The notes under the pieces were generated by a model, which was given only the letters and a program-made list of their open reading frames with translations, did not search any database and was not told the DNA's origin. The position numbers and the translations under genes are program-made. A stretch of DNA of 64,000 nucleotides from Octopus vulgaris. Taxonomy: Eukaryota. The stretch is from NCBI GenBank assembly GCA_951406725.2, contig OX597823.1:114142001-114206000 (forward strand), written 5' to 3'. This document shows positions 12,637 to 62,215 of the stretch, in pieces (positions within the stretch are counted from its first letter, which is position 1; each line of letters opens with the position of its first letter).

Positions 12637-13215
12637 GTATATAATATATATATATATAAATGTATATTTATATAAATGCCTCTCTCTATATATATACTAC
12701 TTACATATATCCATATGTGTATATGCATATATATATATATGCCTATATACATACGTATATATACATATATGTGTTTGTGTATTTAAACTTATATGTATAT
12801 ATACATACATATTGACACACACACACAAATATGCACATGTATACCTATATATGTATATGCATTGAAGTATTATACACATAAGTTATATATATATATACTT
12901 ATATATATATACATATATATATGTATGTATGTATGTTTGTATATAATATATATATATTTATAAATGTATATATATAAATGCCTCTCTCTATATATATACT
13001 ACTTACATATATACATATATGTATATGCATATATATATACGCCTATATACATACGTATAAATACATATATGTGTTTGTGTATATAAACTTATATGTATAT
13101 ATACATATATATCTATGCATATATATAAACACACACACAAATATGCACAGGTATACGTATATATGTATATGCATTGAAGTATTATACACATAAGTTATAT
13201 ATATATATATATACT

Positions 13216-13230
<15 letters not shown>
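12620..13230. repeat. ~300-310 bp tandem duplication of TA-rich compound microsatellite
   Basis: TGCCTCTCT occurs at 12677 and 12979; GAAGTATTATACACATAAG occurs at 12864 and 13176. Confidence 0.85.
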
Positions 13231-13284
<54 letters not shown>

Positions 13285-13700
13285 TTATATATAAGTTTAT
13301 ACATATACACATATATTTGCATACATATCTCTGTGTTTGTGTTTGTCTTTGTATGTGAGTGTGTGCGTGTCTTTAAGTGTGTAAGTATCTATGTATATAC
13401 GAAAGTTTTTTTTATTGAAAGTAATATATTTTGTTGTTAGTAATTTGTTTACATTAATAATGTATTTTGGAAACAGATAACCTTGCCAAACAGTGCAAAC
13501 TAAGCAAAACATGAAAAACCACAATTTAACTACAATGTTCAAATATTGATGGATTAAGAGAACTTAAAATTTTTATAGCGCTAATTTATATTTCTGCTAT
13601 AACCAATGAGTATTACTTTATAAGTCTAAACCTATCAGGAAGCCATTACGCGCTCAAATCTCTCACTAGAAGCAGCAGCCAAATCTCTCTGAAGTAAACT

Positions 13701-42747: not shown

Positions 42748-43159
42748 ATTGCTTGTCAGTTGTTTGAACTTAACCAGTTGAGCATGTCCCTTAGTGGCTG
42801 ACGATATGTGCATCTCTGATCACGAGCAGAAGTAGTGGGGGAGCATCATAGCCCTGTGTTGAAAGGTTTGAATAATTCACTTTTGGAAACATGGGTGGCT
42901 CGTTCAACATCCTTAAACAATCCTTATTCCTGGACCTTTTGAGCGGGATAGGCTACTCCACCAGAAGAAAATTCTAACTGGGCCCCACCTACGAGATCAT
43001 GTGCTGTTTATCTTGATATGAGACCACCATGTCACGCACATATGGTTGCGACGCATGTACCTTGTGTACCCTTATCAGACGGGTAGTTATGATGGGTATA
43101 CTGAGTTTCTTATATTTTACCCCAGTGACAATTTGATGGCATGCACTACTCTCTCACTC
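42748..43159 (+). mobile_element. Non-coding (TAA)n-inserted retroposon, copy 1
   Basis: Colinear with 43350-43772 and shares the 3' end CTCTCACTC-(AAT)n. Confidence 0.8.
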
Positions 43160-52475: not shown

Positions 52476-53009
52476 CCAAAGTGTACGTACGCCGCTATAT
52501 TTTTATATATAAATAATACAAAAATAAGACAAGAACGCAAAACATCCAGATAGTTCAGTGAATCAAGAAAGGGACAACAAAACATCTAAACAGACGATAC
52601 AAAGAAAATAAAGACGGGTATTTGAGATTTCTCTTTCCTCAGTCGTGTTCCAGATAATCTTTGCAATTTCGGCTTCTTATACTCGAGATTGCTCCAGTCT
52701 GACCAGCTCCAAAGAAAAACTATGGTAAGAGCACTAGATTCATTGGAAGAAAGCAGCGAATGTATATGAAAACAAGGACGGAAAAACGACGGAGAAATGG
52801 TACACAAATTCGTCCTGAGTCTTTCGACTAAGGATGAATTAAATTAAGCTGGCGTGTGTGGAAGTAAAGCCTAACGGCAGGGACATGAGGTTTGACAGTC
52901 ACAGGGAGGAATATAGATGTTGCACGGATGGTAGTCGAACCAAGAAAGGAAGGTGAGGCTTGTATATATGTATATGTATATACATATATACATATATATA
53001 TATATATTT

Positions 53010-54050
53010 ATAATTAATCAATATAGGGTAGCAAAAAAATTCAGCAGAAATTATTTTGCTACCAGCGGTCTAGTGAGAAAAAAGGAAATAGTCAGAGACT
53101 ATTTATAAATTCAACAGCAAAATTAAGGAACGGCCATAATAGGCTGTTCAACCCACTAGAAATAACAGCCAAGGCCTCAACCGCAAAATAGTAGTAATTC
53201 CGTGAATCAGGAGAAAATTAAAAAAACATTTACCCTGTTTCACTTTATACAATGCATTGTTTCATCGTTTTTTAATGGTAAATCAGCCTGATTAAATTAA
53301 ATCAAGCTAATCTTCCATAGGCCAACAGATTCATCAGTAAAGTAAGCCAGGAGGGAGAGATAATTACACGAGGCAGCACCACTACCGCTTCCGCAATATC
53401 TAACCTAAAATTTTCAAAATCATCGTACTCGCGCCAATTTTATCGGCAGCAAATATAAGCGGCCGATTCCATTTCGGAATTAAACAGAAAATTCATAATT
53501 AATCAATATAGGGTAGCAAAAAAAATCAGCAGAAATTATTTTGCTACCAGCGGTCTAGTGAGAAAAAAGGAAATAGTCAGAGACTATTTATAAATTCAAC
53601 AGCAAAATTAAGGAACGGCCATAATAGGCCGTTCAACCCACTAGAAATAACAGCCAAGGCTTCAACCGCAAAATAGTAGTAATTCCGTAAATCAGGAGAA
53701 AATTAAAATAACATTTACCCTGTTTCACTTTAAAAATTGGCGCGAGTACGATGATTTTGAAAATTTTAGGTTAGATATTGCCGAAGCGGTAGTGGTGCTG
53801 CCTCGTGTAAATATCTCTCCCTCCTGGCTTACTTTACTGATGAATCTGTTGGCCTATGGAAGATTAGCTTAATTTAATTTAATCAGGCTGATTTACCATA
53901 AAAAACGATGAAACGATGCATTGAAACAGGGTAAATGTTTTTTTTAATTTTCTCCTGATTTACGGAATTACTACTATTTTGTGGTTGAGGCCTTGGCTGT
54001 TACTTCTAGTGGGTTGAACGGCCTATTATGGCCGTTCCTTAATTTTGCTG
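53010..54050 (-). mobile_element. Hammerhead-containing non-autonomous retroelement (retrozyme/PLE-like): 485-bp period, ~1.5 units plus inverted copy, in (TA)n
   Basis: Direct repeats 53010-53247 and 53495-53732 (offset 485). 53733-54050 is the reverse complement of 53115-53441. No ORF. Confidence 0.85.
53240..53345 (-). ncRNA. Type I hammerhead ribozyme with extended stem II
   Basis: Minus strand reads ACUUUA-CUGAUGA-[67-nt hairpin AUCuGUU...AACGAU]-GAAA-CAA-ugca-UUG-UA^UAAAGU. Core is intact, stem I has 6-8 bp and stem III is palindromic. Confidence 0.85.
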
Positions 54051-54125
54051 CTATATATATTTATATATATATATATACATATATATATAAATATATATGT
54101 ATATACATATATATATATACATATA

Positions 54126-54205
<80 letters not shown>

Positions 54206-54233
54206 CAAAAATAAGCAACAAGAATGAATCCGG

Positions 54234-54327
54234 TAATTTAGTACAATTGTTTCATACTACAACATTTTATTAAAAGCTGTAAATATTACAGCAGATTTAA
54301 TATGTCGAGTTCTCTTCAGCTAATTTA
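54234..54327 (-). ncRNA. Second type I hammerhead with extended stem II (different sequence family)
   Basis: Minus strand reads UAAAUUAG-CUGAAGA-[long hairpin]-GAAAC-aauu-GUA^CUAAAUUA, with a few stem mismatches. Confidence 0.7.
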
Positions 54328-54471
54328 TATAGGTTTTCCAATAATATAAAGTTCTCAGATCAATTAGTAACATCTCAGGGAAGGTAAATATACAGATAAA
54401 GATGTAGATATGAATCTCAGGAACATGAGGTAGTGTAGTTCATATGCGAACCAGACCAAAACTAAGTTCAC

Positions 54472-54625
<154 letters not shown>

Positions 54626-55387
54626 GCATAAAAGCATTCAGAGGGAGAGAAAGAATGGGAAAGGGAGGAAAAGATGGAGGAAAAGAAGGCCATGTGGAAG
54701 GACGCGTATATGTTCCTGCGTGCAGCTGAATGTTTATGAGACATGTTGGTATCTTGCAAGTTCAATTTAGTACTTTCAATTATTCTTAAGGGCATATAAA
54801 CTCTTTTTCTTTGAAATACAAAGGATAACCATGAATTAAATTTTAAAATCATATAAGAATTTGGTGTTTATTCTTGGCATCTTCCACTTTTTCACCTGTT
54901 ACACATTTATTTCACTACTCCCCACCCCCTTACTGCTGTTTTCATATCTGCTTGAATGTTTTCATAAATCTTTATTCATTCAGCTTTCTCTAGTTCTAAG
55001 CTGGCGTTAGGATTAGTGAACACGCAGAAGAGTTTGGCAGCAAATTGCCATTCTGAAGCAACTTAGTACATAACATCATATTTATACGAAATAGAACACG
55101 AGTTGAGCTATGTTTAAGATGTACAACTCTCGGCTGGTTTTACTTCTGTGCCTACCTTCCCTAGTAAAACGTACCCAGCTTTGGACTTCTTTTTAACCAG
55201 AAGGCCGTAGGGTTGACATTTCAATGATTTTCACGTTTTAATCGAAACCATCACCAACACTGGTGATGTTTTAGTTGAGATAGTCTATGGAGTATCTTTA
55301 AAATACGAACCAGTCATCAGCTTTGATTTACACAAACATTCTTTGAAAAATATGAATCTTGATATAAATATGATGTTGCCTAATTAA

Positions 55388-57583: not shown

Positions 57584-57618
57584 GTTTCTGACGAAGAGCT
57601 CTGCTCGAAACGTTAATC
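57584..57618 (+). ncRNA. Minimal type I hammerhead in a PLE-like terminal repeat (~57500-57720)
   Basis: gttt-CTGACGA-a-GAGC-tct-GCTC-GAAACGTT-aatc, with palindromic ACGU stem III. Confidence 0.7.
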
Positions 57619-57715
57619 CCTCCTTCTTCCCTTCCTTCCTGAGCGTCCAATAACACTATATTTGTTCCACGTCCTCGTGTTGTTATGTTTTCTCTTTGTG
57701 TTTTCATGTTTGGAT

Positions 57716-57805
<90 letters not shown>

Positions 57806-57934
57806 TCTGTCTATCTATGTATCCCTCTATCTCTCATTATTTATATTCTTTAATTCATTTATAAATTTCAGCGCTTAGCCTGTGGCCGTGCTGAAACACA
57901 CGCGCACACGCGCACACACAAACACACACACACA

Positions 57935-58010
57935 TAGATACATACATACATACATACATATATACATACATGCATACATACATACATACATGCATACATA
58001 CATACATACA

Positions 58011-58042
<32 letters not shown>

Positions 58043-58132
58043 CATACATACATACATACATACATACATACATACATACATACATACATACATACATACA
58101 TACATACATACATACATACATACATACATACA

Positions 58133-58166
<34 letters not shown>

Positions 58167-58308
58167 CATACATACATACATACATACATACATACATACA
58201 TACATACATACATACATACATACATACATACATACATACATACATACATACATACATACATACATACATACATACATACATACATACATACATACATACA
58301 TACATACA

Positions 58309-58340
<32 letters not shown>

Positions 58341-59012
58341 CATACATACATACATACATACATACATACATACATACATACATACATACATACATACATA
58401 CATACATACATACATACATACATACATACATACATACATACATACATACATACATACATACATACATACATACATACATACATACATACATACATACATA
58501 CATACATACATACATACATACATACATACATACATACATACATACATACATACATACATACATACATACATACATACATACATGCATACATACATACATA
58601 CATACGTACATATATACATACATTCATACATACATAGATACATATATACATACATTCATACATACATACATACATACATACATACATACATACATACATA
58701 CATACATACATACATACATACATACATACATACATACATACATACATACATACATACATACATGCATGCATACATACATACATACATACATACATACATA
58801 CATACGTACATACATACATACATACATACATACATACGTACATACATACATGCATGCATACATACATACATACATACATACATACATACATACATACATA
58901 CATACATACATACATACATACATACATACATACATACATACATACATACATACATACATACATACATACATGTACATACATACATACATACATACATACA
59001 TACATACATACA

Positions 59013-59044
<32 letters not shown>

Positions 59045-61870
59045 CATACATACATACATACATACATACATACATACATACATACATACATACATACACA
59101 TACATACATACATACATACATACATACATACATACATACATACATACATACATACATACATACATACATACGTACATACATACATACATACATACATACA
59201 TACATACATACATACATACATACACATACATACATACATACATACATACATACATACATACATACATACATACATACATACATGCATACATACATGCATA
59301 CATACATACATACATACATACATACATACATACATACATACATACATACATACATACATACATACATACATACATACATACATACATACATACATACATA
59401 CATACATACATACATACATACGTACATACATACATACATACATACATACATACATACATACATACATACATACATACATACATACATACATACATACATA
59501 CATACATACATACATACATACATACATACATACATACATACATACATACATACATACATACATACATACATACATACATACATACATACATACATACATA
59601 CATACATACATACATACATACATACATACATACATACATACATACATACATACATACATACATACATACATACATACATACATACATACATACATACATA
59701 CATACATACATACATACATACATACATACATACATACATACATACATACATACATACATACATACATACATACATACATACATACATACATACATACATA
59801 CATACATACATACATACATACATACATACATACATACATACATACATACATACATACATACATACATACATACATACATACATACATACATACATACATA
59901 CATACATACATACATACATACATACATACATACATACATACATACATACATACATACATACATACATACATACATACATACATACATACATACATACATA
60001 CATACATACATACATACATACATACATACGTACATACATACATACATACATGTATACATACGTACATACATACATACATACATACATACATACATACATA
60101 CATACATACGTACATACATACATGCATACATACATACATGCATACATACATGCATGCATACATACATACATACATACATACATGCATACATACATACATA
60201 CATACATACATACATACATACATACATACATACATACATACATACATACATACATACATACATACATACATACATACATACATACATACATACATACATA
60301 CATACATACATACATACATACATACATACATACATACATACATACATACATACATACATACATACATACATACATACATACATACATACATACATACATA
60401 CATACATACATACATACATACATACATACATACATACATACATACATACATACATACATACATACATACATACATACATACATACATACATACATACATA
60501 CATACATACATACATACATACATACATACATACATACATACATACATACATACATACATACATACATACATACATACATACATACATACATACATACATA
60601 CATACATACATACATACATACATACATACATACATACATACATACATACATACATACATACATACATACATACATACATACATACATACATACATACATA
60701 CATACATACATACATACATACATACATACATACATACATACATACATACATACATACATACATACATGCATGCATACATACATACATACATACATACATA
60801 CATACATACATACATACATACATACATACATACATACATACATACATACATACATACATACATACATACATACATACATACATACATACATACATACATA
60901 CATACATACATACATACATACATACATACATACATACATACATACATACATACATACATACATACATACATACATACATACATACATACATACGTACATA
61001 CATACATACATACATACATACATACATACATACATACATACATACATACATACATACATACATACATACATACATACATACATACATACATACATACATA
61101 CATACATACATACATACATACATACATACATACATACATACATACATACATACATACATACATACATACATACATACATACATACATACATACATACATA
61201 CATACATACATACCTACATACATACAAACATACAAACATACAAACATACAAACATACAAACATACATACATACATACATACATACATACATACATACATA
61301 CATACATACATACATACATACATACATACATACATACATACATACATACATACATACATACATACATACATACGTACATACATACATACATACATACATA
61401 CATACATACATACATACATACATACATACATACATACATACCTACCTACATACATACAAACATACAAACATACAAACATACAAACATACAAACATACATA
61501 CATACATACCTACATACATACATACATACATACATACATACATACATACATACATACATACATACATACATACATACATACATACATACATACATACATA
61601 CATACATACATACATACATACATACATACATACATACATACATACATACATACATACATACATACATACATACATACATACTACATACATACATACATAC
61701 ATACATACATACATACATACATACATACATACATACATACATACATACATACATACATACATACATACATACATACATACATACATACATACATACATAC
61801 ATACATACATACATACATACATACGTACATACATACATACATACATACGTACATACATACATGCATACAT
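57935..61870. repeat. ~3.9 kb (CATA)n tetranucleotide array
   Basis: Direct read, with scattered CATG, CGTA and CAAA variants. Confidence 0.97.
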
Positions 61871-61874
61871 ATGC

Positions 61875-62215
61875 TTCTCTGCGATATTTTGTTCCAGAAT
61901 TCAAGACAGTCGTCAGGAATTGTTCCGACTTGTTCTTGGGTGGTTCCCTGGTCAAAGATCTTCTGCTCCCTAGTTTCAATTATTGCGTACCTTTTGTGTT
62001 CCCTATTCACTGTCTTTTGGAACCCAATCTTCATTTATTGGGCAGCTCCGATCGTAGCCTTACATAATGACAGTGTTTACCTGTTTTCTTTGCTTGTTTC
62101 TATTTTCGTGGGTCGTAATAGCTATTTTGTCACGTGGTCCACTCTGCTGTCAAGTGGGACACCTGTTGTGTGAGACGCCTTCACCTTCTGCATCAATCAA
62201 TTCAGAAATTATTTA
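61875..62215 (-). pseudogene. Possible degraded N-terminal region of a Dong/R4 ORF
   Basis: KQVNTVIM*GYDRSCP..GFQK...ETREQKIFDQ resembles the R4-clade N-terminal VMECYY.S.P..GYRK...TEQRL.DQ motif, recalled from memory. Confidence 0.4.

Follow-up and report, generated by a model that had tools for sequence, protein, structure and literature searches.

The hammerhead motif and the repeat that carries it

In the window (the whole 64,000-nt stretch of DNA analysed here), a type I hammerhead motif, with stem I open, occupies positions 53240-53345 of the minus strand. Core, fold, covariation and flank complementarity support a feature that, together with its predicted pseudoknot strand, spans 53240..53348. 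A sequence-only reading of this DNA had described an intact CUGAUGA/GAAA/GUA core and had given no strand; we confirm this core on the minus strand, where the CUGANGA, GAAA and NUH that a hammerhead core requires are all present. The coordinates given in that reading enclosed the hammerhead and stopped 3 nt short, before the predicted pseudoknot strand GGC (53348-53346). Read 5' to 3', the stem I 5' strand UUACUUUA (53345-53338), which pairs with the 3' strand UAAAGUGA (53247-53240), is followed by CUGAUGA (53337-53331), and the core halves are then separated by the 67 nt of the stem II region (53330-53264). Within this region, all on the minus strand, the proximal stem II 5' strand AUCUGUU (53324..53330) pairs with AACGAU (53269-53264), the internal-loop 5' strand GGCCU (53319..53323), a predicted stand-in for loop 2, lies opposite UAAAA (53274-53270), and a distal rod (53275..53318), placed by fold and covariation and differing in length between subfamilies, consists of AUGG/CCAU, an A.A mismatch, 14 bp and the loop UAAUUU. 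The second part of the motif (53248..53263, minus strand) holds GAAA (53263-53260), the stem III palindrome ACAAUGCAUUGU (53260-53249) and the GUA triplet (53250-53248), with the predicted cut at 53248/53247. Immediately 5' of stem I, GGCU (53345..53348, minus strand) is the predicted pseudoknot partner of GGCC (53323-53320).

Each of the four stem II helices drawn in the sequence-only reading is able to form. The minus-strand minimum free energy (MFE) structure contains AUGG/CCAU and the 14-bp distal rod (z = -5.09, with 0/200 shuffles equally stable); the plus-strand reading was rejected, as it has no structure (z = -0.31). The proximal AUCuGUU/AACGAU helix is absent from the MFE, in which the core pairs with that segment instead, and over a 113-nt stretch the active nested fold reaches -27.3 kcal/mol, compared with -30.7 kcal/mol for the MFE. 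Described earlier as one long rod, stem II retains those helices, but it starts with a short helix, continues with a conserved internal loop and ends in a distal hairpin whose length varies. Rfam gave zero matches at the gathering threshold and no hammerhead among 37 matches at E<=10. As the published minimal hammerhead descriptor allows a stem II of at most 7 bp with a loop 2 of at most 10 nt (PMC4209133 Fig. S7), the point that a length-capped search could miss this motif is valid. The stem is also far longer than those of described Penelope-like element (PLE) hammerheads, as had been proposed, since these have a helix II of 3-8 bp and a short loop, at most ~23 nt (56 rows, PMC4209133 Fig. 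S3).

The motif belongs to a repeat with a period of 485, as positions 53006-53247 match 53491-53732 at 97.5%. One full 485-nt unit, from predicted cut to predicted cut, spans 53248..53732 (minus strand) and adjoins a partial second unit (53006..53247, minus strand), which ends at priming site B (~unit 239-242) in (TA)n. Head to head with this minus-strand arm sits an inverted, 5'-truncated arm on the plus strand (53733..54050; unit 292-483, then 6-133) that runs up to priming site A, in (TA)n. The hammerhead of this inverted arm (core at 53837) is predicted to be dead, lacking 9 nt that include the cleavage site. The (TA)n target flanks the insertion on the left (52961..53005) and on the right (54051..54200), the latter tract being common to the neighbouring element. 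Barring a few bases of junction microhomology, the minus-strand arm starts at the first base past a predicted cut. This start was considered as evidence of cleavage and set aside as uninformative, because it is not general and 5' ends in the family spread along the unit.

Among 60 distinct cut-to-cut units, 59 measure 466-499 nt, and the units lie in tandem with one type I hammerhead each. The unit has no long ORF, PLE protein matches are confined to the flanks, and no family copy joined to an ORF was found in ORF lists, by tblastn or by blastn of family loci. The same three approaches yielded no autonomous parent, and a pattern for close relatives with a G-C-closed stem gave 1 match only. Because the hammerhead units are tandem, present in thousands of copies and joined to no ORF, the carrier fits a non-LTR retrozyme. 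Of the Penelope-like context that had been proposed, the PLE-type insertion features stand; the carrier itself appears to be a non-coding 485-nt retrozyme and not a PLE proper, and an ORF with reverse transcriptase (RT) and GIY-YIG domains, by which an autonomous PLE is recognised, is found only in the neighbouring family.

Family-wide covariation and the predicted pseudoknot

A DNA similarity search of the genome (2.8 Gb, 227 contigs) returned 1,759 candidates, 40 of which were scored (90-100% identity), and three genome-wide searches with family patterns gave 1,238, 1,581 and 3,453 matches, with 0 for each reversed-pattern control. As 1,581 and 3,453 family-pattern matches stand against 0 in the controls, the hammerhead motif is not a chance product. 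These patterns demand an intact core and are therefore uninformative on core conservation; among 30 loci retrieved by DNA similarity alone, 28 hold at least one intact core. Subfamilies with identity as low as ~70-75% are the same non-coding unit, and one family member (L270:294-845), in which the core has become CCGAUGA and stem II measures 72 nt, retains the pseudoknot complement.

For covariation, we aligned 33 copies that were hand-picked for diversity, leaving out truncated flanks and broken triplets. In this alignment, 95.2% of 1,031 cells are paired (29-44% in slid controls), and 14/32 pairs change on both sides; 0/500 shuffles reach as high. The covariation check proposed in the sequence-only reading thus turned up compensatory changes across subfamilies, at 5/6 pairs of stem I and at 3/3 counted pairs of proximal stem II. 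The distal rod is 94% paired, with changes on both sides at 4/18 pairs and on one side at 9 more. The core and the three covarying stems are direct observations. The A-U closure of stem II noted earlier holds in the subfamily of the window copy and is not fixed across the family, the closing pair being A-U in 11, G-C in 8, G-U in 1 and unpaired in 13 of the 33 rows. The centre of stem III is self-complementary family-wide, in 335 of 349 rows (TGCA 311, TATA 24, with overlapping loci counted twice), which fits competence as a dimer; a 3-bp monomer stem III is also possible.

The stem II region measures ~44-70 nt across the family and 54-70 nt in the main set. A search for regions of 17-47 nt added 85 matches, mostly of 40-47 nt. 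About 8 of these look by eye like isolated deletions; the main, short-arm group (44-47 nt) retains the internal loop, which lies 4-7 nt from the core and is conserved, and has a shorter cap. Because the loop is kept while the length of the cap varies, the conserved feature, judging from these alignments, is the internal loop, and length is not conserved. We propose no order of arm growth, as the tree has no root and short-arm copies (mean pairwise identity 0.895, compared with 0.908-0.981 in the others) are not clearly older. Arms of 68 nt occur in the subfamilies that are most homogeneous and probably youngest.

The 5' strand of the internal loop is complementary to the bases immediately 5' of stem I. 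The pair is GGCU/GGCC in the window copy, and elsewhere in the family it takes the form AGGUU/AACCU, AGGUC/GACCU, GGCCG/CGGCC, GGCC/GGCU, UGGCGU/ACGCCA or UGGCUU/AAGCCA. The three central pairs are kept in 57/66 distinct variants (0-25/66 in eight control windows) and in 17/20 short-arm variants; pair 3 is C-G in 47, U-A in 8 and U-G in 2, and pair 4 is found as U-G, U-A, C-G and G-C. On the two strands, the distance to the core shifts jointly (8/7, 7/7, 6/4, 5/5; rho 0.73). Swap tests, run on related rows with the best of six registers, were modest and gave 95 vs 86.5 for Watson-Crick pairs (204 of 20,000 swaps) and 1,199 of 20,000 for any pair, with p across swap tests of ~0.01-0.08; register-free energy swaps gave 381 of 5,000 and 848 of 20,000. 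In the window copy, the internal loop pairs best, by energy, with the 3' strand of the rod itself; the 113-nt MFE also forms the GGCU/GGCC helix, yet misfolds the core. Taken together, we regard a pseudoknot between stem I and stem II as probably real in this family, and it likely substitutes for the usual contact between loop 1 and loop 2.

A hammerhead and retrozyme could also be real with no pseudoknot, the long stem II being a tolerated insertion that stays paired only so that the core folds, and the GG/CC being kept for another reason, such as a protein contact. That the central GG/CC is nearly invariant (56 and 57 of 57) is what this explanation would predict, and it gains from control windows that reach 20-25/66, from the weakness of the energy swap tests and from the neighbouring Hydra hammerheads, which have long stems II and no pseudoknot visible by eye. 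We nevertheless consider it unlikely, as the flanking positions change in pairs in separate lineages (e.g. AGGUU/AACCU, GGCCG/CGGCC and UGGCGU/ACGCCA) and the core spacing is coordinated on both strands.

Insertion ends and the neighbouring Penelope-like element

Among 138 mapped 3' ends of the retrozyme, 124 enter (TA)n, and they form two clusters, A (unit 121-147) and B (226-247), ~100 nt apart and each shortly 3' of a hairpin (local hairpins only, taken from a circular fold in which the unit was off by one base at the junction). Two-arm loci combine A with B in 38/40 cases, with none AA or BB (p ~2e-12 if independent), and single arms comprise 22 A and 18 B. Two priming sites are a signature of the PLE tail (PMC11167929) and PLE insertions form inverted structures (PMC8557442); the retrozyme family likewise presents the traits of PLE mobilisation, namely partial tandems, an inverted 5'-truncated copy, a tail at one end and a (TA)n target. 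By analogy, the A+B pairing matches the two-start tail of Penelope, although the retrozyme tail is ~100 nt, compared with 30-40 nt in Penelope elements (PMC11167929, PMC8557442). Strict use of A and B would thus amount to genomic support for the proposed Penelope-type mobilisation of retrozymes. The tandem units, the (TA)n targets, the inverted arms and the two fixed 3' ends are observed directly.

No enrichment of 5' ends is seen at the predicted cut (3/138 within 4 nt, p = 0.47), and 10/138 fall from -4 to +13 of it (p = 0.03, post hoc). In a second sample of 96 5' ends, which excludes the locus L233, whose ends are mapping-scaffold artefacts, 6/96 lie at unit 9-13, just beyond stem I, a post hoc and weak observation. 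In 14/14 arrays, units are closer to one another than to the nearest other array, which is consistent with copying round a circle and also with local duplication or with source arrays that were already homogeneous.

A Hydra-clade Penelope-like element has its 3' end (54203-54475, minus strand) in the retrozyme's (TA)n tract, and this end carries an unrelated type I hammerhead (54238..54323, minus strand; core at 54319) with a 59-nt stem II region. This neighbouring family has 1,314 candidates and continues into RT + GIY-YIG sequence; subfamilies of its hammerhead display compensatory changes in all three stems, and Hydra-clade hammerheads here have a stem II of 54-60 nt with visible compensatory changes. 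The 3' ends of the family fall 31-45 and mostly 131-148 nt past the cut, a spacing of ~100 nt as in the retrozyme. A related, intact Hydra-clade ORF of 1,090 aa (L263:1669-4941, minus strand) has DKT, RWR, CxCX5C, CxxC and CxH motifs and exceeds the size described for Hydra elements (under 3 kb). Long asparagine-rich inserts lie between the RT and EN of this ORF. Apart from separate retrozyme insertions, the retrozyme has no match to 80 Hydra-family loci that would indicate pLTR homology. As no sequence homology ties the two families together, the role of the Hydra-clade element as the likeliest helper of the retrozyme is one that we infer.

Long stems II are not confined to these two families. 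A further long-stem pattern found 328 motifs (6 in controls), belonging to several families, some branched, with stems of up to 78 nt. The length first called unusual is therefore beyond published PLE cases and, within this genome, is met in several unrelated repeat families with 54-78 nt. Five loci (L174, L184, L185, L188 and L190, at ~1480-1625) represent hammerhead-like families with a 72-78-nt stem II, sometimes branched and GAC/GUC-closed. Elsewhere in the window, a minimal PLE-type hammerhead with a 12-nt stem II region and AACGUU lies on the plus strand at 57588-57620, at the end of another repeat, and is probably decayed, stem I being just 2 bp. On the minus strand at 55320, CUGAUGA is followed ~45 nt further by a strong hairpin, with no ordinary stem I or III, and is possibly a rearranged hammerhead. 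Two similar stretches that begin with CUGACGA, at 42798 and 43399 (601 nt apart), both failed the hammerhead filter. A long tandem repeat with a period of ~8 nt and strong GC skew occupies 57800-61900 and resembles the repeat at ~12980-13350.

The fact that long stems II (54-78 nt, branched in some cases) recur in this genome among several PLE-type families that are unrelated raises the question of whether the distal arm is a functional module, i.e. a binding site for the Penelope RT, an aid to dimer formation or a switch that delays cleavage, in which last case multimers could be copied before they are cut. A rod that stays 94% paired, the presence of 68-nt arms in the most homogeneous, probably youngest subfamilies, and an anole PLE hammerhead that required its protein for cleavage (PMC11167929) would all agree with such a module. 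We find it improbable, somewhat more so than the pseudoknot-free stem discussed above, as the arm ranges from ~8 to 19 bp with no sequence common between families and other hairpins accompany the priming sites, which are 130-240 nt downstream.

Interpretation and comparison with known systems

We favour, with a probability of about 0.7, the reading that the motif is a type I hammerhead in a 485-nt repeat of thousands of copies, which would cut tandem transcripts of the repeat, is copied into (TA)n by PLE machinery and carries a pseudoknotted stem II. The window motif itself is a real and likely active hammerhead of a PLE-mobilised retrozyme. Tandem transcripts would be cut by the hammerhead into RNA of unit length. 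Covariation suggests that a pseudoknot of 3-6 bp docks stems I and II, replacing the non-Watson-Crick contact between loop 1 and loop 2, and that the hairpin beyond it may merely cap the internal loop, with ~8-19 bp tolerated. By analogy with described retrozymes, cleavage could proceed as a monomer (with the 3-bp stem III) or as a dimer (with the 12-nt palindrome), and the products would then be ligated to a circle and reverse transcribed round it. One Penelope-type complex may prime both ends of the target, at A and at B, which would generate the head-to-head arms.

A motif with little or no activity in vivo, the arrays being formed by duplication of the DNA or from multimeric transcripts that stay uncleaved, would suit insertions that read through many cut sites (arms of up to ~4.5 kb), the even spread of 5' ends and the finding that 8/9 predicted Xenopus retrozymes were uncleaved in vitro (Li et al., 10.64898/2026.07.22.740005), but we consider it very unlikely, given a core and stems kept through compensatory changes across ~70-75%-identical subfamilies and the intact cores in 28/30 loci fetched by DNA similarity alone.

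A bolder extension of the favoured reading, which we hold only tentatively and think doubtful, is that this undescribed type I architecture is one of a large class of PLE hammerheads with long stems II that searches do not see, and that the arm binds a protein or times cleavage relative to reverse transcription. Because descriptors and Rfam models miss the motif, counts of ribozymes and retrozymes in such genomes would be too low by thousands. With its naturally varied arm lengths and compensatory changes, the family also offers a series in which the docking of stems I and II can be tested and which probes how much stem II can carry; the hammerhead chemistry itself is unchanged by these findings.

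Metazoan non-LTR retrozymes are non-coding, AT-rich tandem units for which mobilisation by PLEs has been proposed (PMC7229834; preprint 10.64898/2026.07.22.740005). The family described here resembles them in its non-coding AT-rich tandem units, its one type I hammerhead per unit and its thousands of copies. Mussel retrozyme motifs likewise do without the archetypal loop-loop nucleotides, and in one axolotl motif the base of helix II is a U.U (PMC7229834; 10.64898/2026.07.22.740005). The family differs in unit length (474-495 nt, compared with ~170-400 nt for the retrozymes treated in PMC7229834), in its 44-70-nt stem II region and internal-loop pseudoknot, and in being known here from DNA alone. 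With the minimal and small-helix-III hammerheads of PLEs (PMC4209133), it has in common the type I topology, a palindromic helix III, a helix II larger than canonical and inverted motif pairs 100-700 bp apart; a pseudoknot is not reported in the accessible parts of that paper, whereas one is predicted here together with a possible 3-bp monomer stem III.

Unusually long helices II have precedents. The minus-strand hammerhead of the viroid CChMVd has one (PMC3705267), and PLE-X1_sMoe of a spike-moss has a 52-nt stem II, with 9 bp and a 34-nt loop, that is marked as deviant (PMC8557442 File S2); as far as the accessible parts of these sources go, neither family-wide covariation nor a pseudoknot is described for either. 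Among viral type I motifs, a 'long' helix II means 6-8 bp (PMC13725137). Pseudoknots also have precedents, as hammerheads of all three types with a Watson-Crick pseudoknot between stems I and II need it for fast cleavage (PMC3088659). These are sensitive to stem lengths, tolerate U.U closure of stem II and often have a very short stem II, and the long-arm type I form with an internal loop is not seen in the accessible parts of that study. In our literature search, type I hammerheads with a long arm and an internal-loop pseudoknot were unreported, with the proviso that supplements could hold long-stem examples. Long-helix-II hammerheads and pseudoknotted hammerheads are thus already known, and the type I version with its docking loop inside stem II is, on the sequence evidence, apparently a new variant. 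A parallel is found in the HDV-like RNAs of toad and termite, whose type III hammerheads (PMC7936874) extend one helix with an internal loop and an extra hairpin that caps it, as here, and pair the 5' strand of that loop, GCCR, to a YGGC of the other helix. The predicted fold would be their mirror image: the HDV-like motifs are of type III and extend helix I, whereas the motif described here is of type I, extends helix II and finds its partner in the open 5' flank.
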